NCBI GenBank assembly: GCA_963713725.1
Contig: CAVQMZ010000015.1
Location: 269,027 to 333,026 of the forward strand
Length of the DNA: 64,000 nucleotides
Source: an uncultured Bacteroidota bacterium
GTDB lineage: Bacteria > Bacteroidota > Bacteroidia > Bacteroidales > GCA-2748055
Direction of reading: 5' to 3'
Both the position numbers and the translations under genes were made by a program. Below are positions 3,973 to 19,192 of this stretch, piece after piece. Within the stretch, counting starts at the first letter, position 1; each line of letters opens with the position of its first letter. The notes below the pieces were generated by a model that worked only from the letters and a program-made list of their open reading frames with translations, was not told where the DNA came from and made no database searches.

Positions 3973-4055
3973 TGGGGTGGTTTTGAGGGATTTATTGTTT
4001 TTGCAAGACAGGTAATTTACCACAAAAAACAGGAAAGCCTGCGACAAATCCATAC

Positions 4056-4887: not shown

Positions 4888-4957
4888 GCCAAACTCCGTT
4901 TATCTTATTAAATTGTTGGCCATAAACCCCACAACATTGGTTTACCCCATTGTGTGC
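4881..4957 (+). other. attC0: short, degenerate attC-like or attI-like site at the head of the array
   Basis: atACTAAG...ccaaactcc...ggtttacccc-ATTGTGTGC. TTGTGTGC (4950-4957) is the reverse complement of GCACACAA at 5325-5332, which closes the first cassette. The core has A instead of G at its first base. Confidence 0.4.
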
Positions 4958-5010
4958 CATTAGGACCCAACTATTAGCATATCATTTGCATCTTGATTGA
5001 AAAATCTGTC

Positions 5011-5322
5011 ATGAAGAATCATCTAAACAAATTAGTCATCATTTTGCTGCTAATAGTTGGTTGTGCCAAGGATGGACAAAAGTGCAAATACCTTGGCCAA
5101 ATAGTTGGATATGACGGAACAGAATGTTCGTGTTGTCCTGGATGGCTCATAAAGGTAAATGGTGATTCAATAAAAATCCGTTTCCTCCCAAATGAAAGTG
5201 AGATCTGGGATATAGATCGAAGTAAAAGATATCCCATTGATATTGAAATAGATTATAAGAGCTTTCAAGGTGATTGTGATCACTCCTACAAAGAGTTAAT
5301 ATGTTATAAATTAATAGACTAA
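5011..5322 (+). CDS. Small Cys-rich lipoprotein, cassette-encoded, unknown function
   Basis: MKNHLNKLVIILLLIVGCAKD is a lipobox signal peptide. Nine further Cys residues follow. I recognise no family. Confidence 0.55.
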   Translation: MKNHLNKLVIILLLIVGCAKDGQKCKYLGQIVGYDGTECSCCPGWLIKVNGDSIKIRFLPNESEIWDIDRSKRYPIDIEIDYKSFQGDCDHSYKELICYKLID

Positions 5323-5324
5323 CA

Positions 5325-5461
5325 GCACACAACAATAGGTAAATTCCATTTGCCATGTCACACATTTTACACCCCAGAATCCAAACTCAGTTGAGAGCAA
5401 ATCACGTATGCAAAATGGTGTGCCATTTGGCAAACAGTTTATTTACCCGAACCGTTAGCAC
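5325..5461 (+). other. attC1
   Basis: GCACACAAC-aataggtaaattccatttgccatgtcac...tgccatttggcaaacagtttatttacccgaacc-GTTAGCAC. The two arms form an imperfect palindrome. Confidence 0.75.
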
Positions 5462-5492
5462 CATACTGGTTCTCCACTCTTGTATCCTTAAT

Positions 5493-5523
5493 TTTGATAT
5501 ATGTAACTTATAAGTTACCTTTG
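5493..5523 (+). promoter_or_regulatory. Cassette-internal promoter plus operator palindrome
   Basis: TTTG (5493-5496), 19 nt spacer, TACCTTTG (5516-5523), which fits the Bacteroides -33/-7 consensus. The perfect 16-bp palindrome GTAACTTATAAGTTAC (5503-5518) overlaps the -7 box. The ATG at 5528 is 4 nt downstream. Confidence 0.55.
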
Positions 5524-5527
5524 CCCT

Positions 5528-5872
5528 ATGGAGAAGGTTAGAGAGGTAATCGCCTATAAGCATTATTTCGAGTCGTTCTTGCGAAAGCAAAACACAAAAG
5601 TGCAAGACAAAATTTACAAAGTCATCGAGATTATTGAAACTTATGAGCGTGTCCCATCAACCTACCTCAAATATCTTAAAGGTACGGATGGTCTTTATGA
5701 GGCAAGAATAAAGCTTGGCTCAAATATCTGGAGAGTGTTTTGCTTTTTCGATGAAGGTAAATTGGTGATACTTTTAAATGGCTTTTCGAAGAAGTCACAG
5801 AAGACTCCTCAGAATGAGATAAATAAGGCTATTCGTTTAATGAAAATGTATTACGAAGAAAAAACAAAATAA
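5528..5872 (+). CDS. Type II toxin, RelE/ParE superfamily (phage Gp49-like / HigB-2-like)
   Basis: 114 aa. YKHYFESFL...LYEARIKLGSNIWRVFCFFDEGKLVILLNGFSKKSQKTPQNEI is characteristic of the Gp49/DUF891 toxin family. An XRE antitoxin gene follows after a 1-nt gap. Confidence 0.8.
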   Translation: MEKVREVIAYKHYFESFLRKQNTKVQDKIYKVIEIIETYERVPSTYLKYLKGTDGLYEARIKLGSNIWRVFCFFDEGKLVILLNGFSKKSQKTPQNEINKAIRLMKMYYEEKTK

Positions 5873-5873
5873 T

Positions 5874-6164
5874 ATGGAAACTAAAAGTTGGAAAGATATT
5901 AAGGATTCTGTCTATGGCAAACCAGGTACAGAAAGAAGAGATCAGTTGGACAGAGACCTTGAATCTGTAAAAATAGGGCTCCTTCTTCGCAAAGCCAGAG
6001 AAGAAAAGAACTTAACTCAAGCTCAATTGGCAGACCTCGTAGACAAGAAAAGGACATACATCTCAAGAGTGGAGAATAACGGTAGTAATCTTACTCTTAA
6101 AACGTTATATGACATAGTTGAAAAGGGCTTAGGCGGAAAGGTGAATATTTCAATTGATATTTAA
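5874..6164 (+). CDS. XRE-family helix-turn-helix antitoxin
   Basis: 96 aa. The HTH reads LRKAREEKNLTQAQLADLVDKKRTYISRVENN. It is adjacent to the toxin gene. Confidence 0.8.
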   Translation: METKSWKDIKDSVYGKPGTERRDQLDRDLESVKIGLLLRKAREEKNLTQAQLADLVDKKRTYISRVENNGSNLTLKTLYDIVEKGLGGKVNISIDI

Positions 6165-6170
6165 TAGTAC

Positions 6171-6422
6171 GTGCGCTAACATTGTGCAAACTCAATATTG
6201 GCTTTTCACGTGCTTTGCACTTGGAAAATCATATCTTTAAATGAGAGATTGTTAAGTCAATCTATAACAAACTGTACAAAACAATTGCAAACGCAAAGCC
6301 CGCGCCAAGTTCCGCTCCGGCCCTCATTGGGAGGAAGGCTGGATTAACAGTTTCGCAAGAAACATGGTTGGCAGGAATGAGGACCGGAGCGCCAACACAG
6401 AGTTTGCACCAACCGTTAGGCC
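6171..6422 (+). other. attC2 (unusually long, 252 bp)
   Basis: GTGCGCTAAC-attgtgcaaactc ... gagtttgcaccaacc-GTTAGGCC. It contains an inner second palindrome: cgctccggccctcatt / aatgaggaccggagcg. Confidence 0.65.
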
Positions 6423-6457
6423 TAATAGCGAAAAAACTATTCTAGCACGGATTTTGT

Positions 6458-6465
6458 TATATTTG
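6458..6465 (+). promoter_or_regulatory. Candidate -7 box TATATTTG for the ParE-type cassette
   Basis: TAnnTTTG match ending 19 nt upstream of the ATG at 6485. Confidence 0.4.
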
Positions 6466-6484
6466 ATACAGATACATTTCAGAA

Positions 6485-6667
6485 ATGATAACTAAGACTC
6501 AAATTATCGATTCCCTCAGCAATCTTCCAGAGAACTTGACTATTGATCAGGTAATTGATCATTTAGTTGTTGTCGAAAAAATCCAAAAAGGGCTAGAGGA
6601 TTCAGAAAACGGGCGTGTCTATAATAAGGATCAAGCTAAGGATAAGCTGAAGAAATGGCTGAAGTAA
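6485..6667 (+). CDS. Small antitoxin-like protein paired with a ParE/RelE toxin
   Basis: 60 aa. It overlaps the downstream toxin gene by 13 nt. The C-terminal GRVYNKDQAKDKLKKWLK is typical of Bacteroidota addiction-module antitoxins. Confidence 0.6.
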   Translation: MITKTQIIDSLSNLPENLTIDQVIDHLVVVEKIQKGLEDSENGRVYNKDQAKDKLKKWLK

Positions 6668-6972
6668 TCTGGACAGAATCTGCACTGGCTGATTTGGAAG
6701 ATATCGGCGAATACATTGCAAAAGATTCCGTTAGATATGCTGAGCTAATTGTTACGAAGCTTTTCGGATCACCTGATATTCTTGAATTGAATCCAAAAGC
6801 CGGGAAAATGGTTCCTGAGCTTCAGAATGAATCTATACGCCAAATAATTAGGGGAAGTTATCGAATTATATACCATTTAGTTGACGAATATAGAATTGAT
6901 ATTTTAACTGTTCACCGATCTTCACGATTGTTAAGTAATACATACGATTTCGAAGATATCGTCAATGAATAA
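6655..6972 (+). CDS. Type II toxin, RelE/ParE family
   Basis: 105 aa. IWTESALADLEDIGEYIAKDS...GSYRIIYHLVDEYRIDILTVHRSSR matches the ParE pattern. Confidence 0.8.
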   Translation: MAEVIWTESALADLEDIGEYIAKDSVRYAELIVTKLFGSPDILELNPKAGKMVPELQNESIRQIIRGSYRIIYHLVDEYRIDILTVHRSSRLLSNTYDFEDIVNE

Positions 6973-6981
6973 GTACTACAA

Positions 6982-7079
6982 GGCCTAACAATAGATATAC
7001 TCCATTTGCCTTGTCATGCTTTTTGAAACAAAAAGCCCGCCATTTGGCAAACGTTTAGTATATCCGGACCGTTAGACGC
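6982..7079 (+). other. attC3
   Basis: GGCCTAAC-aata-gatatactcc-atttgcc..gctttttgaaacaaaaagc..ggcaaacg-tttagtatatccggacc-GTTAGACGC. The arms pair by eye: gatatact/agtatatc and gcttttt/aaaaagc. Confidence 0.8.
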
Positions 7080-7117
7080 AAGGCAGTGAAATTTCTGCCA
7101 GTTTAAGCTTTATTTCT

Positions 7118-7125
7118 TACATTTG
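7118..7125 (+). promoter_or_regulatory. Candidate -7 box TACATTTG
   Basis: TAnnTTTG match ending 16 nt upstream of the ATG at 7142. Confidence 0.4.
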
Positions 7126-7141
7126 ATAAAAAGCATTTGAA

Positions 7142-7390
7142 ATGGATTCGTCGGAATTAAAACTGAAGATTTTCAGGGAAATAGATTCCTTAGACAGCGG
7201 GAAACTCCAGGAGGTTTACGGTTATATTCAGAATTTCCTTAGGGGTGAAAAAGATTTAAATGATTGGGACAAGCTTTCTACAGTTCAAAAAGAAGGCATT
7301 TATAATTCTATTATGGATCTTGATGCAGGCAAAGGTATTGCGAATGATGAGGTAATATCCAAATACCGGAAAAAGTATCCAAATGCCTAA
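7142..7390 (+). CDS. Antitoxin-like protein paired with a RelE/ParE toxin
   Basis: 82 aa. It overlaps the downstream toxin gene by 8 nt. The C-terminal LDAGKGIANDEVISKYRKKY is typical of antitoxins in this gene arrangement. Confidence 0.6.
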   Translation: MDSSELKLKIFREIDSLDSGKLQEVYGYIQNFLRGEKDLNDWDKLSTVQKEGIYNSIMDLDAGKGIANDEVISKYRKKYPNA

Positions 7391-7682
7391 GGGAATAATC
7401 TGGTCACCTGATTCAGAGAAAGACCTCGATAATATTCTTGCATACTTATCAAGTGGATGGAATCCAACAGTTTCATCAAGATTTCTTGATCTCATAGAAA
7501 AGGTGCTGGTTCAGATTTCAGTAAATCCAAGGCAATTTCCCATAATTCAGCAAAAATTAAAAATCCGTAAGTGTGTTCTCACCAAACACAATACTCTTTA
7601 CTATAGAATTAGCAGAAGCCATGTGGAATTGCTCAGAATCTATGACAACCGACAAGATCCAAAAAATTTAAAATTTAATTAG
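7383..7682 (+). CDS. Type II toxin, RelE/ParE family
   Basis: 99 aa. IIWSPDSEKDLDNILAYL...KCVLTKHNTLYYRISRSHVELLRIYDNRQDP. Confidence 0.75.
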   Translation: MPKGIIWSPDSEKDLDNILAYLSSGWNPTVSSRFLDLIEKVLVQISVNPRQFPIIQQKLKIRKCVLTKHNTLYYRISRSHVELLRIYDNRQDPKNLKFN

Positions 7683-7688
7683 TGCCCA

Positions 7689-7822
7689 GCGTCTAACACT
7701 ATGTAAATTCCATACTGCCTGTCACTCCTTTTGCAGACCTGGAACTAAGATGAAAGAGAAAATAAAACATAGCAAAAGATCGTGCAAGTTGTACGTTCAT
7801 TTACACTAACCGTTATTGCTGT
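7689..7822 (+). other. attC4
   Basis: GCGTCTAAC-actatgtaaattccatactgcctgtcac ... gttcatttacactaacc-GTTATTGCTGT. Confidence 0.7.
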
Positions 7823-7892
7823 CATAAATTGATTTCTTTCGTTTGACTTATATCACCTATCGGCGTAAATTGCAGTTAGCAACCTCATTTAT

Positions 7893-9683
7893 ATGTCCAA
7901 CAAACTATCCCAATTCTGGCAGGAGCTAAAACGACGTAAAGTTCTCCGTTCACTGGCCATCTACGCAGGTACTGCCTTTATCATCCTTGAAGCCTCCTCC
8001 ATCATTTTCCCACTTTGGGATTTTCCAGAATGGAGCATCAACCTGGTGCTTTGGCTTCTGATTCTGGGCGCATTTATCAATGTGATCATCGCCTGGATTT
8101 ATGACATCACCGCGGGAGGTATGCGAAGGACCAAGCCCATGGAAGAGGTCACCCCGGAAGAAAGAATTCCAGATTCCAGAGTATGGAAAGCTGCCACCTA
8201 TATCAGCCTGGTGGTGATTGTTGGTTTGATTGTTCTGAATATTGTGGGTGGAGGCAAACAGTTACGTGCAGGTGACATCGAGTCTTTGGTAATCCTTCCT
8301 TTTGAAAACTTTACCGGGGACGATCAGCTCGATAACATGGTTTCCAGCATGCACTCTTTGCTTTGTGGAGATATGGGCAGGATTAGTGGATTACGGGTGA
8401 TAGGAAAGACTTCCTCAAAAGTTTACAAGGACACTGATTTGTCTGCAAAAGACATAGCCAGGGAATTGAACGTGGATGCAGTGTTGGAGCCGACGATAAT
8501 GTGCCTGGGGGATAGTGTTTGCATGCAGTTCAGGTTGGTAAGCACTACCGGAGAGGAAGATCAAATCTGGGTTGGTGATTACAGGGAGGATAAAAGACAG
8601 ATCCTGAATCTGTTTAACAGGCTTACAAGGCAGGTCGCTGATGAAGTAATGATCGAATTAACTCCTGAAGAAGAGCGATTGCTTGCCAAATCAAGATCAG
8701 TTGATAGGGAAGCCTATGATGCCTATCTGAAAGCCCGCTATTACGTGAATGATTTCAGTAAGGAATCCTTATTCAAAGCACTGGATTATCTGAATAGTGC
8801 CATCGAGAAAGAACCAGACTGGGCACCCCTGTATGGAGGTCTGGCAGAGCTCTGGATGAATATACAACTGGGAGGGTACGAATCACCTTCTGTTGCTGCT
8901 CCTAAAATCTCCGAGAACCTCAATAAGGCCATTGAACTGGATCCGGATCTTGCACAAGTCCATTATCTCTCTGCTATGAACGCTCATTGGGTGGAATGGA
9001 ACTGGGAAAAGAGCGAAAAAGAATTCCTGAAGACCCTGGCCATAAATCCCAATGACTCATGGGCAAGATTGTTGTATTCACAGTTATTATTGATTCTGCA
9101 AAGGAATGATGAAGCATTGGCGCAAATAGAATTGGCAGCAGGCCTGGATCCTTTGAATCCTGCTGAGAAATTGTTGTATTCAGGAACACTGATACAGGCT
9201 GGCGATTTTGCAGCTGCCTTGTCTGTCGCAGAGGAACTTGTGGCCGATGATCCGATGGACATGAATGCGAAAGGGATGCTTGAAATAGCAGCTTACAACT
9301 TAGGCGAGTACGACGAAGTAATCAAATCTCTGAAACATAAACTGCCGTTTTCAGAAGATGTTTATGAGGGGATTGTGAGGATTTATAATGAATCCGGGAT
9401 CGTAGCGGCATATGAAGAATTAATGAAACATATGGAGAAGTATGCGGAAAATATTCCTATCGGGTGGGCTGGTATGGCCGGAGGGTACATCATTGCCAAT
9501 CAACCTGATAAGGCCATGGATTGGATTGAGAAAGGATTTGAAGCGCATGATCCGCAAATCACATATATAACCGCAACAGGGCGGTTTTATGAACAGTTGT
9601 TCGGGAATCCCAGATTTATTGCCATTTGTAAAAAAATGAACCTGCCTTTGCCGGAGGACAAAAGGAATCTTGGAATCATTTGA
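7893..9683 (+). CDS. Membrane-anchored TPR-repeat protein, cassette-encoded
   Basis: 596 aa. The N-terminal FWQELKRRKVLRSLAIYAGTAFIILE motif is followed by two TM segments, then an LVILPFENFTGDDQLD block (TolB-N-like), then a C-terminal half rich in TPR-like helices. Confidence 0.6.
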   Translation: MSNKLSQFWQELKRRKVLRSLAIYAGTAFIILEASSIIFPLWDFPEWSINLVLWLLILGAFINVIIAWIYDITAGGMRRTKPMEEVTPEERIPDSRVWKAATYISLVVIVGLIVLNIVGGGKQLRAGDIESLVILPFENFTGDDQLDNMVSSMHSLLCGDMGRISGLRVIGKTSSKVYKDTDLSAKDIARELNVDAVLEPTIMCLGDSVCMQFRLVSTTGEEDQIWVGDYREDKRQILNLFNRLTRQVADEVMIELTPEEERLLAKSRSVDREAYDAYLKARYYVNDFSKESLFKALDYLNSAIEKEPDWAPLYGGLAELWMNIQLGGYESPSVAAPKISENLNKAIELDPDLAQVHYLSAMNAHWVEWNWEKSEKEFLKTLAINPNDSWARLLYSQLLLILQRNDEALAQIELAAGLDPLNPAEKLLYSGTLIQAGDFAAALSVAEELVADDPMDMNAKGMLEIAAYNLGEYDEVIKSLKHKLPFSEDVYEGIVRIYNESGIVAAYEELMKHMEKYAENIPIGWAGMAGGYIIANQPDKAMDWIEKGFEAHDPQITYITATGRFYEQLFGNPRFIAICKKMNLPLPEDKRNLGII

Positions 9684-9846
9684 TCCAAATATCAGGCCGA
9701 GCAAGAAAGGATCAGGCGATGGTTGGAGAATGAGATGCTATAATTCAACATTTTCTTTGCTACAGATTGGATAAAAATAATCAAGGCCATTAGGAAAGTT
9801 GTTAAGGGATAATCATTTATTGTAAAATCTGATTATGGAATCTACA

Positions 9847-9982
9847 ACAGCTAACATTGAGTAAACTCCATTTGCCATGTCACACTTTTTGCACCCCAGA
9901 ATCACAGGTAACTGAGAAATCCTTAAATTGGCAAAAAGGTGTGCCATCTGGCAAACAGTAATTTACTCCGGCCGTTATGGGC
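9847..9982 (+). other. attC5
   Basis: ACAGCTAAC-attgagtaaactccatttgccatgtcac...ggcaaacagtaatttactccggcc-GTTATGGGC. The roughly 105-nt core is identical to attC6. Confidence 0.8.
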
Positions 9983-10156
9983 AAGCATTTGAGGGCAAAT
10001 AACTAATTCGAAAGACTTGTGAAATGTACTGAAATAACTAACCTTCAGATACAGAGAATACCAGTATGATTGGAATCCACTGCGATACAATCAGATAAAC
10101 CATGACCGTTTGATGATAAGGCTATAGTTTTTTAGAAAGTCTGCTTGTTTCAATAT

Positions 10157-10765
10157 CTAATAAGTAATCTCTCCTTCTCCAGTAAAACTCCACCGGCCTT
10201 CAGCATCAGTATATCCATACATAAGGAAATACCCGTTGGCATCCTGGTATTTTTCCGTACCTCCAATAATCGTGTAAGGATAAAAAAGATTGGGCGGATT
10301 CTCCAAATCGGGGTAAGGAATTCCCATCATCGTATGAATCTCACTTCCGCATGCAGCCGTTATAAATCCATAAACAGGGCTCATAAAAGTACCATCCCAG
10401 TCCATGCAGGCCAGGTTCTGAACTTTGAACAAACCGAGATGAGTGGCAATTCCGCTGCCCTCGATAACCATCTGTAATGGTGCCGGGATCCCGGCACAGT
10501 ATCCCGCATCTGGCACAATGCTAAATGTTCCGGTTGATCTTTTAAATTCAATGCTTTTTGTTAAAGCTTTCTTTCCTGATTTTGCGGATTTTAACGCAGC
10601 CTGCAGATCAAAATCATCTGCCTGGTATTGATTAAAGGCTCTAATGTATGGTTCAAGTACAAAATCGGTCTCTTCAACCATTCTTTCCCGGGTATCCAGA
10701 ATCTCATCCTGGCAGGAGGAAGATAACAGCATAATTCCGATAAGGAATAAAACATTCTTTTTCAT
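10157..10765 (-). CDS. Lipoprotein of unknown function
   Basis: 202 aa. MKKNVLFLIGIMLLSSSCQDE is a lipobox signal peptide. It lies downstream of the kinase gene on the same strand. Confidence 0.55.
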   Translation of the reverse strand: MKKNVLFLIGIMLLSSSCQDEILDTRERMVEETDFVLEPYIRAFNQYQADDFDLQAALKSAKSGKKALTKSIEFKRSTGTFSIVPDAGYCAGIPAPLQMVIEGSGIATHLGLFKVQNLACMDWDGTFMSPVYGFITAACGSEIHTMMGIPYPDLENPPNLFYPYTIIGGTEKYQDANGYFLMYGYTDAEGRWSFTGEGEITY

Positions 10766-10895
10766 GATCTGGTGGTTTTATATTTTTAAACAAACTGCCT
10801 GCAAGCAGACAAGTATCCCAATAAAGGTACTTCAGACATCCAAGCCCTGCTTTGCTCAGAATCTCAAATGTTTTGGAAATTGTCTCAATTACAGA

Positions 10896-13073
10896 TTATT
10901 GGACGGACTTCACTACTTCACTCGGTGAATAACCAAACTCTTCCCTGAATGTAGTACTGAAATGGGATAAATTTTTAAAACCCGAGGCCAGGGCAGCTTC
11001 CGTGACATTTGAAGCCCTGCTTTCCAGCATTACTTTTGCCTTGTACAGGCGATATGACCTGATGTAGCGGCCAATGGACATGTTTGTTAGTGCAGTGAAT
11101 TTGCGATAAAGCTGAGGACGGCTCATCCCGATGGAGGAGCAAATATCAGTCACACCGAAATTTTCCATATGCAGCTTTCCATCCAGGAGCTTGTTTATTT
11201 TGTCCAGGAAAATAAGTTCCTGCTTGTAGGCATTATTATCCTGATGCGTTTGCAGTGGAACTACCTTTAGCTTATCCTGCATTTTGCGCCTGGCAATAAG
11301 CAGGTTATTCAGCTTGAGGAATAGTTCTTTTTCATTGAAAGGTTTAACAAGGAAATGGTCCGCACCAATTTCAAGCCCCTTTATTTTTGATTGAAAATCA
11401 CCCCTGGCCGTAAGGACTACAACCGGAATATGATCTGTATGGATATCAGTCTTCAGTTGATCGAGCAATTCATATCCATCCATTTTCGGCATCATAATAT
11501 CGGTGAGGATAATATCGGGTATTATCTGAAGTGCCTTTTCAAATCCTTGTTCCCCGTTGGAAGCTATTTCGATTATGAATTGATTTTCAAGCACTGACAC
11601 CATATATTCCACTACGTCGTTATTATCATCAACAATCAGGAGAATAGGTTTATCGGGGGACATAACGGCCCTGATTTCCTGATCCTTACCCGGATCCCTG
11701 GTTGGCAGTACATGCTGAGAAGCAGAAGGATTCAGCAGTGAAATGCCATGATCTGCATCCTCCCGGGCTTCTCTGGTAGCCGGCAGACTCACTACGAATT
11801 CCGATCCCTCATTCACCTTGCTCTCAACCCGTATTTCTCCCTTCATCATATGTACCAGTTCCCTCGTAAGTGTAAGGCCGAGACCTGTACCAGGGGTCTC
11901 TTCGTCAATATCCGGAACTTGATAGAATCGTTCGAAGATGTATTTAACAGCTTCCGTTGGTATCCCTTTCCCTGTATCCCTGACATGAATATTCACTGTT
12001 TCCGTATCTCCTTGTGTTCTATTAAATACTTCAACATCTATATGACCACCCGGGGGAGTGAATTTAATGGCATTCGATACGAGGTTGCTAATGATGTGCA
12101 TCAGCTTATCGGGATCGTAGTCCATTTGCAGAGAAACATTGTCTGTTTTAAACTTCAATGTAATGTTCTGGCTTTCGGCAAGGCCATGGAAAGATCCGGT
12201 AAGGTATTTTATATACTTAACAATATCGCCCTGAATGAGATCCAGGTGCATGCTCCCGGCCTCAATCTTGCTGATATTCAGCATTTGGTTCACCAGCCTC
12301 AGAAGAATCTGGCTTTGCATTCTTATTTTGCCAGGTCCCTCTTTCAGCCATTTATCTTTGTGATTTTCCATCTGCTCAGCAATTCCTGAAATGACCGTGA
12401 GCGGAGTACGGAATTCGTGAGACACATTGGTGTAGAGCCGGGTTTTTGCTTCGTCAATTTTTCTTAAACTGTCGGCTTCTCGTTTTTCATAGCGGTTTTT
12501 ATCTTTCATAAATAGGATCACAAGGAACAGCATGCAGGCATTTATCCAGAGATTAAGTACGACGAAGAGAATGGTATTTGTCCTGTATGAAAAGTCTGAT
12601 GGTATTTCTAAATATGGTTGGAGAATACCCGTTAGAACTATGGTCGCACCGTACAAAAGGAAAATTCCAACTGTCCAGCGGATTTTTCCTGCCAGCACCG
12701 ATCCCATGGCACAGTTAATCCCTATAAAAACCAAACCATTGGATGTTTCGAGTCCGCCAAACTTCAACATGGCAAAAAATATCGCAATGATGAAGTAAGA
12801 GAACAAAATGTTCATGACCAGGTCGAAACGCCTCAACCTCCTGAAAAGAGGGAAAGCAACCGCATAGCCCATTAAGAAAGCAGGACCCGCCCACCAGGCC
12901 TGTAATACATCCAGAACAAGAAACAATATGGTTGAAAAGATAACTCCGATACAGGTTACAACCATCCATATCCAGGCCCAACGCTTACGAAGAAGTGCCT
13001 CTGACTCAAGCCTTGAATCTGCAAGGTACCGGTCGATCCACGCAAGGATCTCCTGTTTCGAATATAATTTCAT
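10896..13073 (-). CDS. Hybrid sensor histidine kinase / response regulator with C-terminal AraC-type HTH
   Basis: About six N-terminal TM helices, HisKA H-box SHEFRTPLT, HATPase N/G boxes (NAIKFTPPGG, DTGKGI, GTGLGLTL), receiver domain (LLIVDDNNDV...DIMMPKMDG...LTAR...KPF), and AraC HTH (SHFSTTFREEFGYSPSE). The start is taken at MKLYSK; the ORF extends to 13088. Confidence 0.85.
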   Translation of the reverse strand: MKLYSKQEILAWIDRYLADSRLESEALLRKRWAWIWMVVTCIGVIFSTILFLVLDVLQAWWAGPAFLMGYAVAFPLFRRLRRFDLVMNILFSYFIIAIFFAMLKFGGLETSNGLVFIGINCAMGSVLAGKIRWTVGIFLLYGATIVLTGILQPYLEIPSDFSYRTNTILFVVLNLWINACMLFLVILFMKDKNRYEKREADSLRKIDEAKTRLYTNVSHEFRTPLTVISGIAEQMENHKDKWLKEGPGKIRMQSQILLRLVNQMLNISKIEAGSMHLDLIQGDIVKYIKYLTGSFHGLAESQNITLKFKTDNVSLQMDYDPDKLMHIISNLVSNAIKFTPPGGHIDVEVFNRTQGDTETVNIHVRDTGKGIPTEAVKYIFERFYQVPDIDEETPGTGLGLTLTRELVHMMKGEIRVESKVNEGSEFVVSLPATREAREDADHGISLLNPSASQHVLPTRDPGKDQEIRAVMSPDKPILLIVDDNNDVVEYMVSVLENQFIIEIASNGEQGFEKALQIIPDIILTDIMMPKMDGYELLDQLKTDIHTDHIPVVVLTARGDFQSKIKGLEIGADHFLVKPFNEKELFLKLNNLLIARRKMQDKLKVVPLQTHQDNNAYKQELIFLDKINKLLDGKLHMENFGVTDICSSIGMSRPQLYRKFTALTNMSIGRYIRSYRLYKAKVMLESRASNVTEAALASGFKNLSHFSTTFREEFGYSPSEVVKSVQ

Positions 13074-13133
13074 TGCTGCCCCATACAAGTTACCATAAAT
13101 TATTCATTAATAAAACAATAGGGAAACATGCAT

Positions 13134-13269
13134 GCCCATAACATAGAGTAAATTCCATTTGCCATGTCACACTTTTTGCACCCCAGAATCACAGGTAACT
13201 GAGAAATCCTTAAATTGGCAAAAAGGTGTGCCATCTGGCAAACAGTAATTTACTCTAACCGTTATGAGC
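13134..13269 (+). other. attC6
   Basis: GCCCATAAC-atagagtaaattccatttgccatgtcac...ggcaaacagtaatttactctaacc-GTTATGAGC. Confidence 0.8.
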
Positions 13270-13296
13270 AATTCAAAAAAAAATGAACCATTCTGA

Positions 13297-14340
13297 ATGA
13301 ATATGACAAAAAAACAAATAAAACGAATTCTCAGAATAGTATTTATTATGGCAAGCATATCCTCCCTGTTCTTTGTACCATGGCTTTTGGTAAAGGCGTG
13401 GATACTTCCGCTACCGGATACGGTTCAGGAACAGTTAGATGAGGCCATTGGTCATGGATTTGACGGAATGATTGTTTATGTAGACCAAGCTGGTAAACCA
13501 CCTCAGTATTTTGCTTCCGGCTGGCACGATCGAGAATCCAAGATACCTGCCAAACCTCAAGCCCTATTTAAGATTGCCAGCATCAGCAAGCTATATGATG
13601 CTGTGGCTGTCACCAAATTGGTAAGTGATGGACGTCTTTCTTTGGATAAAACCATCGCCGATTATTTACCGGAGCTTGTAGGAAGAATTGAAAACGCTGA
13701 GAAAATTACCTTGAGGTTGATGATACAGCATAGAAGTGGCATTCCCAATTTTACGGACGCTCCGAATTTTTGGGCAGCTCCAACAGAGACCTATGAAGAA
13801 AGTCTTGCATTGATTCTGGACAAGCCGGCCAACTTTGAACCCGGTGAAGACTATGAATATTGTAATACAAATTATCTGTTAATCAATAAGATAATGGATG
13901 ATGCGCTAGGTTATGGGAACTTTCAATTCATTCAGGAAGAAATTCTAATGCCGCTAAATCTTAACAATACCTTCGGTTCGCTAAGTGAAGTGAATATAGA
14001 CGATGTGATGAGTGGCTATCATGTAGGACATCCCTTTGATTTAAAGGCAGACGAACATGGCATGTTAGCCACAGCAGAAGACGTGGGTACTTTCCTAAGG
14101 GCATTGAACGATGGATCATTGTTTGAACAGGGAGAACAGGAAATATATTCTTCCATTTATGAGTATGAACATGCAGGTTGGGTTCCGGGATACCAGAGTT
14201 TTGCAAAATATCACAAAGACCTTGATGCTGTTGTTATTGAGTTCTACAGCACAACCGATCCTAAACTGTACAATTGGAACTTGTCAGAAATCATAAATAA
14301 TAGAATTGTTAAAATACTGAAAAGGCAAAAAAGCTCATAA
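13297..14340 (+). CDS. Serine hydrolase, beta-lactamase/transpeptidase fold (class C-like), cassette-encoded
   Basis: 347 aa with an N-terminal TM/signal segment and an S-x-x-K motif (FKIASISKLYDAV). The stop codon overlaps the attC7 inverse core. Confidence 0.75.
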   Translation: MNMTKKQIKRILRIVFIMASISSLFFVPWLLVKAWILPLPDTVQEQLDEAIGHGFDGMIVYVDQAGKPPQYFASGWHDRESKIPAKPQALFKIASISKLYDAVAVTKLVSDGRLSLDKTIADYLPELVGRIENAEKITLRLMIQHRSGIPNFTDAPNFWAAPTETYEESLALILDKPANFEPGEDYEYCNTNYLLINKIMDDALGYGNFQFIQEEILMPLNLNNTFGSLSEVNIDDVMSGYHVGHPFDLKADEHGMLATAEDVGTFLRALNDGSLFEQGEQEIYSSIYEYEHAGWVPGYQSFAKYHKDLDAVVIEFYSTTDPKLYNWNLSEIINNRIVKILKRQKSS

Positions 14341-14466
14341 CACTAGGTAAACTCCATTTGCTATGTCACACATTTTGCACCACAATATCCAAACTCAACC
14401 AAGAGCATTACCGTATGCAAAATGGTGCGCCATTAGCAAACGTTAGTATACTCAAACCGTTATTGC
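14333..14466 (+). other. attC7 (its GTT core is interrupted by, or abuts, the group II intron)
   Basis: GCTCATAAC-actaggtaaactccatttgctatgtcac...gccattagcaaacgttagtatactcaaacc-GTTATTGC. It belongs to the same subfamily as attC1. Confidence 0.75.
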
Positions 14467-15114
14467 GACACGAAGTCGTATAAATGATAGTTTTACTAAG
14501 ATTCAGTTCTTTGATAAAACCTGCTGTTTCCCCAGCAGTACCCTACCGGGACAACTGATGTATGGTGCAGCCATTATTGGTTGAAGCTCCCTGGAAATTG
14601 TACCAAACGTTTGGGTCGAGTATCCTTAAAACGGGGCTGAAAACCGTGAGGTGGATAGTCCTCGGAGTCTCAAAGCCGATTTAGGGCATGGGTTTATGGG
14701 TATGGCTAAAGTAATTGAACACTCCGCAACTGCCGTGATCACGTAGGGAGCGAAAAAGAGAATGACACGCTCTTAACCAAAAGGTAGGCTGGCAAGTTAT
14801 AAGCGTTTAACGCAGCTTATACGGGAACGTAGCCCAGTCGGCAGACAGGATGAGCCTAACCTCATTATTTTGTCATTTATACGGAACGTGGAAGCCCGAC
14901 GCTCTCTCCCAACTACCTCGTGCAGGTAACAGGGATAAAACCGTAACCGCAAGGCATCGGGAAACGTCGGACAGAGAAGTTGGAACAAGCGAATGCTGCA
15001 TTGTAATGGTGCAGATAGCAGTTGAGATATCACTGCGGACGAAAGTTCTGCTGACCTCCAACCGGTGCTTTTTGGCAAGAAAACTTTATAGAACCTGTCA
15101 ATGGTAGAAAGCAA

Positions 15115-16639
15115 ATGAACGAGGATGTAAATCTTTCGTGTGCAATACCACACCACACTGATAACTGGCACAGCATTATCTGGCGTCAGGTTATCCAAAG
15201 GGTGCGCAGGCTGCAAAGGAGGATCGCCAAGGCTGTGAAAGAAGGTCGTTGGGGCAAAGCTAAAGCCCTGATGTACCTGGTATCCAAATCATTTTATGCT
15301 AAGTTGCTGGCCGTATTTAGAGTAAGCTCCAATAAGGGAAGTACTACTCCGGGAGTGGACAAGATCGTTTGGATAAACGACCATGCAAAACTCCAGGCAG
15401 CCAGAAGCCTCAAAGCAAGAGGCTATACTCCAAAGCCTCTTCGAAGGGTGTATATCCTGAAGAAGAATGGCAAGAAACGACCATTGAGCATACCATCAAT
15501 GCATGACAGGGCGATGCAAGCCCTGTATGCCATAGCGCTTGATCCTGTTGCTGAGACAACAGCTGACCCGAACTCTTATGGGTTCAGGGAGAAAAGGTCA
15601 TGTGCTGATGCTATCGCCCAATGCTTTTTGTCGTTGTGTAGGAAAACGTCATCTCAGTGGGTGTTTGAAGCAGATATTAAATCTTGCTTTGACCAAATCG
15701 ATCATGATTGGATAATGGAGAATATCCCATCAACAAAACCATCCTCAAAAAATGGTTGAAGTCGGGATACATCGAAAAAAACTCTGTTTCCAACTAAAAG
15801 AGGAACGCCACAGGGCGGTACAATTCCCCTACGATCATGAATATGGTTCTGGATGGTATGGAAATGCTATTAAGAAACACTTCCCTCGGTGGAAAGGACA
15901 AAAAGTAAACTTCATCCGATATGCGGATGACTTTGTGATCACTGCTTCCACATACGAAGCACTGAAATATGAAGTAATCCCTCTGGTGAAGGATTTTCTC
16001 TCTGTGAGAGGGCTCTCCCTCTCCAAAGATAAATCCAAAATCACCCATATCAACGATGGATTTGACTTTTTATCACAAAATATCCGAAAATACAAGGGTA
16101 AATTGTTGATACGTCCCTCCAGGGAGCCTATCCAGTCTTTCAAGGATAAGTTGAAAGACATACTCAGGAGAAACAGGGGAATCCCTGCCCATGGACTAAT
16201 CCGGCTACTTAACCCTGTTATCAGGGGGTGGTCGAATTACCATAAAGGGATATGTTCCAAACTCACCTTCTACAAGTTGGGGACTTTCATTTATTGGCAA
16301 TTAAAACGGTGGGCGAAATACCAGCACGGAAATAAGAACCGACGCTGGATACATAGGCGATACTTCTTAAACACACATTTTACTGACACCAGGACCTCTG
16401 ACAAGGGTAAAGACGTATATCGGCTTTATCGAATTGGTCATGTTCCTATAAGGTATCATGTGAAGATCAGAAGCCTTGCCAATCCCTACCTGCCGGTATA
16501 TGACAAGTACTTTTTCCAACGCAGAGCTTGTAGAGATCTCTTAGCAAAAGAATGTAAACAAATCACTACTTTTAGTGGTAAGGAAACCAACGTTAACAGC
16601 CGGGTGTCCCCGCATGGGGCACGCCTTAAAAGCGCTTGA
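15115..16639 (+). pseudogene. Group II intron reverse transcriptase/maturase, four frameshifts, no endonuclease domain evident
   Basis: RT blocks are present: RRVYILKKNGKKRPLSIPSMHDRAMQ, YGFREKRSCADA, FEADIKSCFDQIDHD, (frame changes) TPQGGTISPTIMNMVLDG, FIRYADDFVI. The maturase X block is LNPVIRGWSNYH. Frame changes occur near 15727, 15785, 15825 and 15868. Confidence 0.85.
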
Positions 16640-16696
16640 GCCATATGCGACGAAAGCCGCACGTAGGGTTCTTAGGGGGCGTAAGCTACCCGGTTT
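16638..16696 (+). ncRNA. Group II intron domains V and VI
   Basis: Domain V is 34 nt with the AGC triad and a GAAA tetraloop. Domain VI is GGGGGC-GTAA-GCT[A]CCC with a GNRA loop and a bulged A at 16688, the candidate branch point, 7-8 nt before 16695/16696. Confidence 0.7.
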
Positions 16697-16732
16697 GCTC
16701 ACATACTGGTTCTCCACTCTTGTAATCTCAAT

Positions 16733-16763
16733 TTTGATATATGTAACTTATAAGTTACCTTTG
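16733..16763 (+). promoter_or_regulatory. Second copy of the TA cassette promoter and operator
   Basis: TTTG, then 19 nt, then TACCTTTG, with the same 16-bp palindrome GTAACTTATAAGTTAC at 16743-16758. Confidence 0.55.
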
Positions 16764-16767
16764 TTCT

Positions 16768-17112
16768 ATGAAGAAGGTTAGAGAGGTAATCGCCTATAAG
16801 CATTATTTCGAGTCTTTCTTGCGAAAGCAAAATACAAAAGTGCAAGACAAGATTTACAAAGTCATCGAGATTATTGAAACTTATGAGCGTGTCCCATCAA
16901 CCTACCTCAAATATCTTAAAGGTACGGATGGTCTTTATGAGGCAAGAATAAAGCTTGGCTCAAATATCTGGAGAGTGTTTTGCTTTTTCGATGAAGGCAA
17001 ATTGGTGATTCTCTTAAATGGCTTTTCGAAGAAGTCACAGAAGACTCCTCAGAATGAGATAAATAAGGCTATTCGTTTAATGAAAATGTATTATGAAGAA
17101 AAAACAAAATAA
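16768..17112 (+). CDS. Type II toxin, Gp49-like RelE/ParE superfamily (second copy)
   Basis: The 114-aa product is identical to that of 5528-5872 except E2K. I counted seven synonymous nucleotide differences. Confidence 0.8.
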   Translation: MKKVREVIAYKHYFESFLRKQNTKVQDKIYKVIEIIETYERVPSTYLKYLKGTDGLYEARIKLGSNIWRVFCFFDEGKLVILLNGFSKKSQKTPQNEINKAIRLMKMYYEEKTK

Positions 17113-17113
17113 A

Positions 17114-17404
17114 ATGGAAACTAAAAGTTGGAAAGATATTAAGGATTCTGTCTATGGCAAACCAGGTACAGAAAGGAGAGATCAGTTGGACAGAGACCTT
17201 GAATCTGTAAAAATAGGGCTCCTTCTTCGAAAAGCCAGAGAAGAAAAGAACTTAACTCAAGCTCAATTGGCAGACCTCGTAGACAAGAAAAGGACATACA
17301 TCTCAAGAGTGGAGAATAACGGTAGTAATCTTACTCTTAAAACGTTATATGACATAGTTGAAAAGGGCTTAGGAGGAAAGGTGAATATTTCAATTGATAT
17401 TTAA
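17114..17404 (+). CDS. XRE-family antitoxin (second copy)
   Basis: The protein is identical to that of 5874-6164, with three synonymous differences. The start is taken at METKSW. Confidence 0.8.
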   Translation: METKSWKDIKDSVYGKPGTERRDQLDRDLESVKIGLLLRKAREEKNLTQAQLADLVDKKRTYISRVENNGSNLTLKTLYDIVEKGLGGKVNISIDI

Positions 17405-17410
17405 TAGTAC

Positions 17411-17503
17411 GTGCGCTGTGTAAATTCCATATTGCCTGTCACGCGGAAAAAAGCAAAAGTCGCACCAGGTGTACAGTATTTGCAATATACGTCGTTAGCA
17501 CAC
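17411..17503 (+). other. attC8 (short; the inverse core lacks AAC)
   Basis: GTGCGCT-gtgtaaattccatattgcctgtcacgcgg...gtatttgcaatatacgtc-GTTAGCACAC. Confidence 0.6.
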
Positions 17504-17524
17504 ATAACAAAAACCAGATGTAAC

Positions 17525-17570
17525 TTGACTCTCGTATTAATTGTACGTATATTTGTACTATATTATGTAC
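17525..17570 (+). promoter_or_regulatory. yefM-yoeB type promoter and operator
   Basis: TTG (17525-17527), 20 nt spacer, TATATTTG (17548-17555). Three TGTAC motifs lie at 17542, 17554 and 17566, exactly 12 bp apart. Confidence 0.5.
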
Positions 17571-17586
17571 GAAATAATTAAAACTA

Positions 17587-17841
17587 ATGATAACAGCATC
17601 AATATCTGATTTCCGGAAAGATATCAAGCGATATCTTGACAATGTGACTAAGAATTTTGAAACGCTAATTATCAATCGAGGGAAGGATAATGGCGTAGTT
17701 GTGATTTCCTTGGACGAATACAATTCATTAACTGCCACTCAACATGAGCTTTCTTCAAAAGCAAATGAGCAGAGATTAGATTCTGCCATTGAGAAACTTC
17801 AATCTGGCAGGTCTTTCGAGAAGAAAATTAACGAGGAATGA
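17587..17841 (+). CDS. yefM: Phd/YefM-family antitoxin
   Basis: 84 aa. ISDFRKDIKRYLDNVTKNFETLIINRGKDNGVVVISLDEYNSL. It overlaps the toxin gene by 4 nt (ATGA). Confidence 0.85.
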   Translation: MITASISDFRKDIKRYLDNVTKNFETLIINRGKDNGVVVISLDEYNSLTATQHELSSKANEQRLDSAIEKLQSGRSFEKKINEE

Positions 17842-18095
17842 AATTAATATTCGTTGACGAGTCTTGGGAGGATTATCTGTATTGGCAAAAGACCGATAAA
17901 AAGATGATGAAAAAGATCAACGAATTGATCAAGGACATCTCACGGAATCCATTTCACGGTATAGGCAAACCAGAGCCTCTTAAATTCAAATATAAAGGTT
18001 ATTGGTCTCGAAGAATAGATCAGGAACATCGACTTATCTATCGAGTCTCAGAAGATGAGATTTGGATTGCTAAATGCAGGCATCACTATGATTAA
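17838..18095 (+). CDS. yoeB: YoeB/Txe-family toxin
   Basis: 85 aa. SWEDYLYWQKTDKKMMKKINELIKDISRNPFHGIGKPEPLKFKYKGYWSRRIDQEHRLIYRV...CRHHY. Confidence 0.9.
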   Translation: MKLIFVDESWEDYLYWQKTDKKMMKKINELIKDISRNPFHGIGKPEPLKFKYKGYWSRRIDQEHRLIYRVSEDEIWIAKCRHHYD

Positions 18096-18104
18096 AAAAG
18101 TTAC

Positions 18105-18203
18105 GTGTGCTAATAATAGGTATATTCCATTTACTATGTCATGCTTTTTGTCACAAAAAGCATGACATTAGCGAACGTTAGCATACCCCGACCGTTATGC
18201 TGC
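18105..18203 (+). other. attC9
   Basis: GTGTGCTAAT-aataggtatattccatttactatgtcatgctttttgtcacaaaaagcatgacattagcgaacgttagcataccccgacc-GTTATGCTGC. Confidence 0.75.
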
Positions 18204-18209
18204 ATAAGG

Positions 18210-18240
18210 TTGACATTTATAAAAGTTATACTTACCTTTG
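18210..18240 (+). promoter_or_regulatory. higBA cassette promoter candidate
   Basis: TTG (18210-18212), 20 nt spacer, TACCTTTG (18233-18240). The ATG is at 18265. Confidence 0.45.
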
Positions 18241-18264
18241 ACGTTAGTATCGTAAAGCGTTATT

Positions 18265-18549
18265 ATGATTAGGTCGTTTGGATCGAAAGAAACCGAGAAA
18301 ATCTGGAATGGGATTAGATCTAACAAGATCCCCCCTGAAATTCAAAAGGCAGGTCGACGGAAGCTTAGAATGATCAACAATTCAATTGACATTAATGATC
18401 TAAGAATACCACCCTCTAACCGGCTTGAAAAGCTTAAAGGAGATCTTAAAAACTTTCATAGTGTAAGAATAAATGGTCAATGGAGGATCATATTTAAGTG
18501 GGAAGCCGGTCACGCACAAGAAGTTGAAATTGCTGATTATCATACATAA
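18265..18549 (+). CDS. higB: HigB-type toxin (plasmid maintenance system killer family)
   Basis: 94 aa. IRSFGSKETEKIWNG...LRMINNSIDINDLRIPPSNRLEKLKGDLKNFHSVRINGQWRIIFKW. Confidence 0.85.
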   Translation: MIRSFGSKETEKIWNGIRSNKIPPEIQKAGRRKLRMINNSIDINDLRIPPSNRLEKLKGDLKNFHSVRINGQWRIIFKWEAGHAQEVEIADYHT

Positions 18550-18555
18550 GTGAAA

Positions 18556-18855
18556 ATGGAAAAGCTAGATAACATTCATCCGGGTGAGGTGCTAAAAGAG
18601 GAATTCATGATACCACTGGATATTACGGCGTATCGCCTGTCTAAAGACCTGAGGATTCCTCAAACTCGTATTAGTGAGATCTTGAAAGGCCGCAGACGTA
18701 TTTCGGCTGATACAGCATTAAGATTGAGCAAGTACTTTGGAAATTCTGCCAAATTCTGGTTAGGACTTCAGGACGACTATGATCTTGAAGAAGAGCTTAC
18801 TGCAAGGAAACGAGAATTCCAGAAGATCAAAAGAAGAAAGGATTATGCAGCATAA
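18556..18855 (+). CDS. higA: HigA-type HTH antitoxin
   Basis: IHPGEVLKEEFMIPLDITAYRLSKDLRIPQTRISEILKGRRRISADTALRLSKYFGNSAKFWLGLQ. A GTG at 18550 is an alternative start. Confidence 0.85.
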   Translation: MEKLDNIHPGEVLKEEFMIPLDITAYRLSKDLRIPQTRISEILKGRRRISADTALRLSKYFGNSAKFWLGLQDDYDLEEELTARKREFQKIKRRKDYAA

Positions 18856-18947
18856 CAATGTACATACCCCATTCTGCTTGTCATGCCTTTCGCAGAAAAG
18901 CAAAAGATCGCGCCAATTGAACAGTGTATGTAAGGTAAGTTACAAAC
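18847..18947 (+). other. attC10
   Basis: GCAGCATAAC-aatgtacataccccattctgcttgtcatgcc...cagtgtatgtaaggtaa-GTTACAAAC. It overlaps the higA stop codon. Confidence 0.6.
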
Positions 18948-19192
18948 AATGCCTCTGCAACTAGGAAAAACTAAAGCTCATTCTGAAATGACTGTAGTAA
19001 ATTAAGATTTATATGACAATTAGTATTCAAGAAATATCTGAGAAAGATAAGTAGCAAAGAATAGGCAGAGCTAATTCTTGAAAACCTGGATTAGAAGAAG
19101 ATAATTATAACTATCTATTTCCTATTGAACTTATTCAAATTTTGCATTGTTTTGATTTAAGCAATCTACATTACATAAAATTGTAAGTAAAT

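Follow-up and report, generated by a model that had tools for sequence, protein, structure and literature searches.

The stretch of Bacteroidota DNA analysed here (64,000 nucleotides, referred to as the window) carries on its + strand, between 4.95 and 18.95 kb, an integron-style array of ten gene cassettes with ten attC-type hairpin sites, at the head of which lie the remnant of a tyrosine recombinase gene and an attI-like region (Table 1). Six of the ten cassettes (60%) are type II toxin-antitoxin (TA) operons, namely Gp49/XRE in two copies, two antitoxin/ParE pairs, YefM/YoeB and HigB/HigA, which makes six pairs of five kinds. An earlier note on this DNA had announced five pairs and four distinct modules in its title, which is an undercount, although its text and its six coordinates were right; the length of 0.57-0.73 kb that it gave for the TA cassettes needs to be replaced by 0.66-0.96 kb when measured from crossover to crossover. 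We also searched the small unannotated open reading frames (ORFs) of the non-TA cassettes for hidden TA domains and found none.

The assignment of the TA genes rests on domain searches and on gene layout. All of the toxins match their Pfam families over their full length and above the gathering score (Gp49, 77 bits; ParE at 6655-6972, 58 bits; ParE at 7383-7682, 40 bits; YoeB, 138 bits; HigB, 79 bits), and the antitoxins are recognised for three of the kinds (XRE/HTH_3, PhdYeFM, and HigA by TIGR02607 with 107 bits). The two genes of a pair overlap or stand 0-1 nt apart, and the small ORFs at 6485-6667 and 7142-7390 overlap the ParE genes that follow them by 13 and 8 nt. Over 712 nt the two Gp49/XRE copies share about 97.5% identity, their divergence setting in exactly at the R'' box of their attC sites, and the same cassette is found in another genome (locus L061; protein identity 91% and 95%) with the same GTTAGCAC boundary and other neighbours. 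The presence of different attC sites on the two copies is unlike a simple cassette duplication and points to a deletion or recombination event. The attC of copy 2 (17404-17501) lacks the AAC of R'', reading GCGCT|GTGTAAATTCC where copy 1 has GCGCTAAC, and it folds poorly (z = +0.9).

Each of the six TA cassettes has in its leader a perfect match to TAnnTTTG, the -7 box of the promoters read by the primary sigma factor of Bacteroidota, whose -33 element is TTTG. The boxes were confirmed by a motif scan at all of the positions that had been proposed, and they sit 39-62 nt inside the cassettes (TA leaders are 56-91 nt long), so that each box travels with its cassette. The earlier note had placed the box 4-24 nt before the first ATG, which is correct for five cassettes, the gaps in array order being 4, 19, 16, 4, 31 and 24 nt; the exception is YefM, where a gap of 9 nt leads to an out-of-frame ATG and the gap to the start of the gene is 31 nt. 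A TTG 19-20 nt upstream of the box, which had been ascribed to several of the leaders, is present in four of the six (3/5 kinds), with a spacing that fits the known promoters. The absence of the box from the non-TA cassettes was likewise borne out: the serine hydrolase, the tetratricopeptide repeat (TPR) and the first cassettes have none, and non-TA leaders are as short as 9-31 nt, some of them, such as the 31-nt leader of the hydrolase, being too short for a promoter. On the + strand of the array the motif occurs 10 times with 5.3 expected, and 6 of the 10 are the TA leader boxes. The scarcity of exact boxes elsewhere in the window, before about three other genes only, also speaks for a specific link with the TA leaders. 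Matches to sigma-70-type promoters were not enriched (45 versus 39.9 +/- 7.2 expected).

A motif with only six fixed bases could arise by chance in AT-rich leaders of about 30% G+C, and in shuffled versions of the leaders the box does appear with a probability of 0.03-0.06 each. The joint probability for the five independent leaders, however, is 1.8e-7, and the association recurs outside the window. The same attC family is present in Bacteroidota metagenome-assembled genomes (MAGs), and the TA cassettes of these related arrays (HicB/HicA, two antitoxin/ParE pairs, a weak PIN match, MNT/HepT, Phd/YoeB remnants and Gp49/XRE) all have a box, with 4-20 nt between it and the first ATG. When the window is pooled with 11 related loci, the box is found in 15/15 TA cassettes, of which about 10 are independent, and in 0/~37 non-TA cassettes (Fisher p = 2e-13, or 2e-10 when only independent cassettes are counted). 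Furthermore, a 33-nt block that begins with TTTTG (-33) and ends with TACCTTTG (-7) shows no change among three Gp49/XRE copies, two in the window and one, 91% identical, in the other genome, and the upstream half of the leader has diverged among the same three copies. Chance is thus statistically refuted, and the claim that TA cassettes have their own Bacteroidota-type promoter and neighbouring non-TA cassettes do not is supported both in the window and in independent related arrays.

The sequences around the boxes suggest how these promoters may be used. A perfect 16-bp palindrome (GTAACTTATAAGTTAC) overlaps the Gp49/XRE box and three TGTAC repeats lie around the YefM/YoeB box, an arrangement (GTAC..box..GTAC) that is also seen in the Phd/YoeB cassette of L120. 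The operator of the E. coli yefM-yoeB operon has a TGTACA core. The palindrome and the TGTAC repeats are likely to be operators for TA autoregulation. The sigma-A box of Flavobacterium psychrophilum spans -12 to -5 (PMC9723704), from which a transcription start 5 nt after the G of the box is predicted. The Gp49/XRE mRNA would then be leaderless, starting at the A of its ATG, as would that of the MNT/HepT cassette of L119, and the other TA cassettes of the window would have 5' untranslated regions (UTRs) of 12-27 nt. The box-to-ATG gaps of 4-5 nt that imply leaderless mRNAs set these promoters apart from the majority of those described: 5' UTRs shorter than 10 nt account for 3.7% in Bacteroides (PMC7366714), and leaderless transcripts for 5.5% of the mRNAs of F. 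psychrophilum (PMC9723704), which makes the compaction of the Gp49/XRE leader notable.

Two further features of these leaders were observed. In several TA promoters a TTG or TTTTG stands directly 5' of the -7 box (attttgtTATATTTG, aaggttgTAACTTTG, caattttgTATCTTTG; window 6453-6465, L046 848-862, L119 13696-13710, and L075), which resembles an extended -7 element. In addition, the YefM/YoeB promoter (17525-17553) also reads as a good sigma-70-type promoter (TTGACT-17-TATATT, 10/12 matches) and the HigBA leader (18210-18240) has TTGACA at the -33 position, so these two cassettes might, to judge from these motifs, be expressible outside Bacteroidota too.

Table 1. Features of the array and of the TA promoters, in window coordinates
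Feature	Coordinates	Strand	Details
Tyrosine-recombinase pseudogene heading array	4055-4887	+	no start codon; +1 frameshift (insertion) near 4600
attI-like region	4888-4952	+	recombinase stop to first cassette boundary (..GGTTTACCCCA|TTGTGTGCC)
Cassette 1	4950-5464	+	small lipoprotein-like ORF 4993-5322; attC 5322-5464; no promoter box
Gp49-like toxin/XRE antitoxin cassette, copy 1	5454-6425	+	toxin 5528-5872; antitoxin 5874-6164; long attC 6169-6425
Gp49/XRE copy 1 promoter	-7 TACCTTTG 5516-5523	+	-33 TTTG 5493-5496; palindrome GTAACTTATAAGTTAC 5503-5518
Unclassified antitoxin/ParE-RelE toxin 1 cassette	6415-7081	+	ORFs 6485-6667, 6655-6972; attC 6978-7081
ParE-RelE toxin 1 promoter	-7 TATATTTG 6458-6465	+	
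Unclassified antitoxin/ParE toxin 2 cassette	7071-7822	+	ORFs 7142-7390, 7383-7682; attC 7686-7822
ParE toxin 2 promoter	-7 TACATTTG 7118-7125	+	
Non-TA TPR cassette	7812-9984	+	596-aa TPR protein 7893-9683; attC 9844-9984; no box
Non-TA cassette, two reverse-strand genes	9974-13271	-	lipoprotein 10157-10765; hybrid histidine kinase/receiver/AraC 10896-13088
Non-TA serine hydrolase/beta-lactamase fold cassette	13261-14469	+	ORF 13297-14340; attC 14330-14469; 31-nt leader, no box
Group II intron	14464-16700 (boundaries approximate)	+	reverse transcriptase/maturase ORF split: 15115-15759, 15752-16639
Gp49/XRE cassette, copy 2	16700-17501	+	toxin 16768-17112; antitoxin 17114-17404; attC 17404-17501, defective R''
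Gp49/XRE copy 2 promoter	-7 box 16756-16763	+	palindrome 16743-16758
YefM/YoeB cassette	17494-18204	+	YefM 17587-17841; YoeB 17838-18095; attC 18103-18204
YefM/YoeB promoter	-7 TATATTTG 17548-17555	+	TTG 17525-17527; three TGTAC repeats within 17541-17571
HigB/HigA cassette, last of array	18194-18949	+	HigB 18265-18549; HigA 18550/18556-18855; attC 18845-18949
HigB/HigA promoter	-7 TACCTTTG 18233-18240	+	TTG 18210-18212

Our results suggest, with good probability, that this is the cassette array of an integron-like Bacteroidota element whose own recombinase has decayed and in which self-promoted TA cassettes penalise their own loss. Each TA cassette would be an autonomous, autorepressed transcription unit wherever it is placed, without read-through from the platform, the antitoxin or the TA complex repressing it via the box-overlapping repeats. 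With a stable toxin and a labile antitoxin constantly expressed, losing a TA cassette would be harmful, be it through excision or through attC repeats recombining with each other, and TA cassettes together with the DNA removed with them would therefore persist. They now make up 60% of an array that is no longer able to acquire cassettes. The non-TA cassettes would depend on upstream transcription, possibly from the TA promoters. The reading of the boxes as promoters belonging to the cassettes is well supported by the statistics and the cross-genome comparison, and a stabilising role is plausible but would be only partial.

A number of observations weigh against this explanation. The promoter rules are carried over from other Bacteroidota, and elsewhere in the 64-kb window exact boxes precede only about three other genes and one tRNA. 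Both ParE cassettes lack a -33 element, which according to the literature is not always detectable; the -7/-33 consensus comes from Bacteroides (PMC7366714). The small ORFs at 6485-6667 and 7142-7390 match no Pfam or NCBIfam family, and family membership is the basis for taking the toxins to be toxic and the antitoxins labile. A sequencing error could account for the frameshift of the recombinase remnant, but the lack of a start codon speaks for genuine decay. Finally, the TA cassettes are grouped in two blocks at the ends of the array (5.45-7.8 kb and 16.7-18.9 kb) and do not guard the central non-TA cassettes, so that deletions confined to the latter would go unpenalised. The attC sites at 9844-9984 and 13131-13271 are near-identical, in direct orientation, and flank the sole cassette with reverse genes (a lipoprotein and a hybrid sensor kinase/AraC protein); recombination between them would remove this non-TA cassette only and thus carry no TA penalty.

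This layout also counts in favour of the view that the TA cassettes bring no benefit to host or array and that a decaying array merely becomes enriched in the cassettes whose loss is punished, an explanation which we regard as a serious competitor that nevertheless falls somewhat short of an even chance. The duplication of the Gp49/XRE cassette is in keeping with it, as is the TA share, which is 6/10 beside a dead recombinase and 0-29% in arrays with an intact one (2/7 in L119, 0/6 in L122 and 0/5 in L123). The sample for this comparison is small, and L061, whose recombinase may be intact or decayed, has 2/5 TA cassettes. Enrichment by addiction and stabilisation of flanking DNA are moreover not mutually exclusive, and an array-maintenance role of Vibrio TA cassettes has experimental support (PMC13108822). 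Taken by itself, the high TA share is explained by simple selfish persistence in an array undergoing decay no less well than by stabilisation.

A different function for the boxes, as internal promoters that mainly serve promoterless cassettes downstream and replace a missing platform promoter, could be proposed from the finding that there is no consensus box either upstream of the recombinase remnant or between the remnant and the first cassette. Three TA promoters directly precede the TPR cassette, and no terminator-like sites were found on the + strand after the TA cassettes. We nevertheless consider this unlikely as their main role. The last three TA cassettes have nothing downstream of them within the array, autorepressed TA promoters are usually weak and attC hairpins may block read-through, and the requirement that a TA operon be expressed constantly is a simpler reason for the strict link between box and TA cassette.

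The earlier note had also suggested that some of the modules act as abortive-infection-type defences. Integron cassettes have been reported to be enriched in defence systems (bioRxiv 10.1101/2024.07.02.601686), a role of this type has been proposed for those of Vibrio, and gut relatives of the platform (rAID-1, discussed below) carry immunity genes against type VI secretion systems (T6SS). A protein with a ThsB-TIR-like (Thoeris) domain is the first cassette after the recombinase at locus L177 (2010-2417), and defence-type cargo therefore does occur among these arrays. For the TA cassettes of the window the suggestion found no support, the PADLOC search having returned no system-specific match for any of the ten TA proteins, only a partial Gp49-NsnC domain match and generic HTH matches, and no sequence feature sets these pairs apart from ordinary addiction modules. 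That some of them are primarily abortive-infection or other anti-phage systems is accordingly improbable, and the preferred explanation remains that of addiction modules with promoters of their own.

That the units are genuine cassettes is indicated by their attC sites. In alignment the ten sites have a common layout consisting of R'' (..yTAAC), L'' (GTAAATTCCATTTGCCATGTCAC), a variable centre, L' (GTGCCATTTGGCAAAC) and R' (ACCGTTAk). In DNA folding their bottom strands form long imperfect hairpins with bulged bases and z-scores down to -6, and the consensus fold of nine of them has compensatory changes in 9/29 pairs. The first covariance model found nine strong sites of 53-143 bits, all in a single orientation and all within 5322-18949, and a scan of the window with it found none beyond these limits; the unusually long site at 6169-6425 (257 nt), the centre of which holds a strong internal hairpin (~6306-6396, CGCTCCGGCCCTCATT paired with AATGAGGACCGGAGCG), was recovered by a broader model, R2, with 33.9 bits. 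R2 was built because model R1 was too narrow for distant arrays, and it still misses short sites of the rAID type and divergent attC families, such as those of L180, a locus without an R2 match whose three divergent sites were detected only as repeats. In 53 related sites 93% of the cells are paired and 15/29 pairs show compensatory changes, in an alignment that was fitted to the covariance model and is thereby biased in its favour; none of 500 shuffles matched this pairing and covariation, and slid controls gave 37-47% pairing. A scan of the genome collection with a degenerate 19-mer attC pattern gave mostly chance matches, for which reason related loci were restricted to those confirmed by the covariance model. 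Rfam has no match for the attC sites of the array, the 257-nt site included.

The cassette boundaries carry a further signature. In seven of nine cassettes, including ParE1, ParE2, YefM/YoeB and HigB/HigA, the bases that follow the 5' G|TT crossover are the reverse complement of the cassette's own R'' box (in the ParE1 cassette GTTAGGCCT pairs with R'' AGGCCTAAC), whereas in Gp49/XRE copy 1 the complementarity is only partial. Complementarity between boundary and R'' is the signature of a unit that cycles via a circular form. Eight of the ten cassettes are co-oriented, and G+C content is 0.36-0.38 in the TA parts and 0.40-0.46 in the large cassettes.

The recombinase remnant is co-oriented with the cassettes and retains its catalytic motifs. 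It is 68% identical over 273 aa to an intact protein of 282 aa encoded directly upstream of an array with attC sites of the same family (L060:1096-1944), so that the description of the array as integrase-less is true of its function but not of its origin. Against NF040815 the remnant reaches 229 bits (cut-off 220), and against the IntI model TIGR02249 it reaches 218 bits in two stretches, short of the required 265. An attI-like block (TAAATTG..ATAAAC.CCACAA..GTTTACyCC..GTT) is conserved downstream of seven recombinase genes, and in the window the boundary at this region is complementary to the R'' box of the first cassette (GCACACAAC). A 3-nt deletion in the attI of the window was considered and rejected on account of this complementarity.

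The recombinase-headed arrangement is also found at L044, where the gene is frameshifted, at L119, L122 and L123, each with 5-7 attC sites downstream, and at L120. L119 and L120 have upstream chromosomal genes in common and different cassettes. Among 80 metagenome loci with relatives at 52-71% identity, R2 gives 16 attC matches, to which L120 adds three, and all 19 are downstream of the recombinase and in cassette orientation. The intact relatives are 278-292 aa long (longer gene calls such as P0075 have an N-terminal extension) and have 21 residues in place of residues 179-242 of VchIntIA, a 64-residue stretch that contains the IntI-specific region. They score 213-221 bits on TIGR02249 (cut-off 265), which is higher than on the XerC or XerD models, and the closest solved relatives of the family are archaeal XerA proteins. 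More than 7,700 of 8,000 candidates scored are homologues at E <= 1e-40. The TAnnTTTG box was absent upstream of all of the recombinase genes examined (0/29). The recombinase gene of a Parabacteroides distasonis array described below does have an upstream TAnnTTTG box, with a gap of 24 nt.

The closest precedent for the TA cassettes is the sedentary chromosomal integron of Vibrio cholerae (higBA, parDE, relBE, phd-doc), and the background statement from which the idea of cassette-borne promoters started agrees with the literature, in which TA cassettes of Vibrio chromosomal integrons "contain their own promoter" (PMC13108822). In both systems a whole type II TA operon fills a single attC-bounded cassette and brings a promoter of its own, which ordinary cassettes lack, several families are present with some duplicates, and a role in array retention has been proposed (PMC13108822). 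The window differs in belonging to another phylum, in its -7/-33 rather than -10/-35 promoter grammar, with leaderless or very short 5' UTRs predicted, in the small size of the array (10 cassettes, 60% of them TA, all six TA cassettes in sense orientation), and in its platform recombinase, which has the orientation of the cassettes and does not belong to the classical IntI type.

[quoted passage not shown] These were described as a XerD-family recombinase with repetitive intergenic sequences "reminiscent of integrons" and were found in 226/423 Bacteroidales genomes (bioRxiv 10.1101/471110). Ross et al. (2019) required a recombinase more than 44% identical to the Bacteroides fragilis reference and at least two co-oriented downstream genes with a G+C content of no more than 41% and conserved intergenic motifs; the preprint makes no mention of antitoxins, TA cassettes or cassette promoters (bioRxiv 10.1101/471110). 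According to a 2025 preprint, the mechanism by which rAID arrays arise is still under study. A tblastn search of plasmids led to P. distasonis, in which the recombinase heading an array of T6SS immunity genes (Tdi1, SMI1/KNR4) is 51% identical to the remnant, a value that exceeds the 44% of the authors, whose threshold refers to the B. fragilis reference and not to P. distasonis.

Like the rAID-1 arrays, that of the window has at its 5' end a XerD-like tyrosine recombinase followed by co-oriented short genes with conserved intergenic repeats. The repeats of the P. distasonis array, however, are sites of about 50 nt ending in AACCATTA that escape the attC model, whereas those of the window are 100-257 nt long with the canonical R''-L''/L'-R' layout and a GTTA core, and the cargo of the window consists of TA pairs, a TPR protein, a sensor kinase and a hydrolase, domain searches having found no immunity-protein families among its cassette proteins. 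The difference between these short sites and the sites of canonical length argues that the window represents an environmental sister lineage with a different cargo. With classical integrons and with attC-site clusters that have no integron integrase (CALIN) the array shares RYYYAAC/GTTRRRY-like boxes, imperfect bulged hairpins, the G|TT crossover and an attI-like site beside the recombinase; unlike in classical integrons, the relatives of the recombinase lack the IntI-specific region and fall below the TIGR02249 cut-off. IntI has been defined by this region (Cury et al. 2016), and surveys have found almost no integrons in Bacteroidota. IntegronFinder-type searches, which need intI_Cterm, would therefore call these arrays CALIN. 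The TA-cassette pattern is thus of a known kind, found in a new phylum with the promoter grammar of that phylum and on a rAID-related platform, and our literature search found no paper that links TAnnTTTG with integron cassettes.

The recurrence of the own-promoter rule in a second phylum, in that phylum's own promoter grammar, means that it is not specific to Vibrio and argues that autonomous expression is required for TA cassettes to survive in arrays. For the rAID arrays of gut Bacteroidales, whose biogenesis has been described as unknown, the loci studied here provide environmental relatives with textbook attC hairpins and crossover signatures, which makes rAID-type systems directly testable as integrons. 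The more interesting question is whether a domain-less recombinase recombines canonical attC sites. It is conceivable, and we hold it to be a little less than an even bet, that the short XerD-like recombinases, those of rAID included, are true cassette integrases which act on folded attC sites without the IntI-specific domain, in which case Bacteroidota hold a large overlooked class of integrons. If so, the arrays of more than 7,700 homologues would have been filed as CALIN or missed by present tools, the self-promoted TA cassettes would be the addiction modules of these overlooked integrons, and the latter might be where exported resistance genes, tet(X3) for example, come from. Were the recombinase active, both the indispensability of the IntI-specific domain and the lack of integrons in Bacteroidota would need revising, and integron finders would need a second integrase profile.

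With respect to tet(X3), an Acinetobacter indicus plasmid (NZ_CP041297.1; L205, 5043-7064) carries this gene 190 nt downstream of, and co-oriented with, a 5'-truncated homologue of the recombinase (57.5% identity), which is called tpnF in the literature. The attI junction of L122 (TGTTATGTGCCATT) is matched by the sequence ..CCACTTGTTATGTGCCATT, located 20 nt ahead of the ATG of tet(X3). Judging from this match, tet(X3) may have been acquired from a Bacteroidota array in which it held the place of the first cassette. On the 3' side of the gene, a fold resembling attC did not reach significance, and no paper combining tpnF with attC was found in the literature searched.

Other features of the window place it in Bacteroidota, namely two proteins with sorting domains of the type IX secretion system, a GlsA glycine-lipid acyltransferase, sulfatases and a hybrid two-component regulator. 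TPR proteins of about 600 aa with a conserved N-terminus (..FWQELKRRKVLRSLAIYAG..) recur as cassettes at 58-68% identity, several per array, and are the commonest cargo seen in the related arrays (window 7893-9683; L061 2832-4637 and 5006-6808; L046 3273-5075; L123 2585-4594 and 8113-9882; and L080). Long metagenome contigs were seen to end 0.4-1 kb downstream of the recombinase (L136, L150, L158, L163, L173, L176, L184, L186, L197, L200 and L202). These ends may reflect assembly breaks at repeated attC sites, and if they do, MAGs contain too few arrays of this type.

Immediately behind the R' box of the hydrolase cassette's attC (14330-14469), ahead of Gp49/XRE copy 2, a group II intron is inserted on the top strand and in the sense of the cassettes. 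It was recognised by matches to Rfam RF02012 (14520-14686) and RF00029 (16636-16694) and by the RVT_N, RVT_1 and GIIM domains, and the ORF for its reverse transcriptase/maturase is split near 15755. A group II intron at an attC site within a cassette array recalls the group IIC-attC introns, whose described members enter the bottom strand and run against the transcription of the cassettes (PMC3001079), whereas the intron of the window occupies the top strand and reads in the direction of the cassettes. In the L120 array the reverse transcriptase gene of an intron has the opposite orientation.

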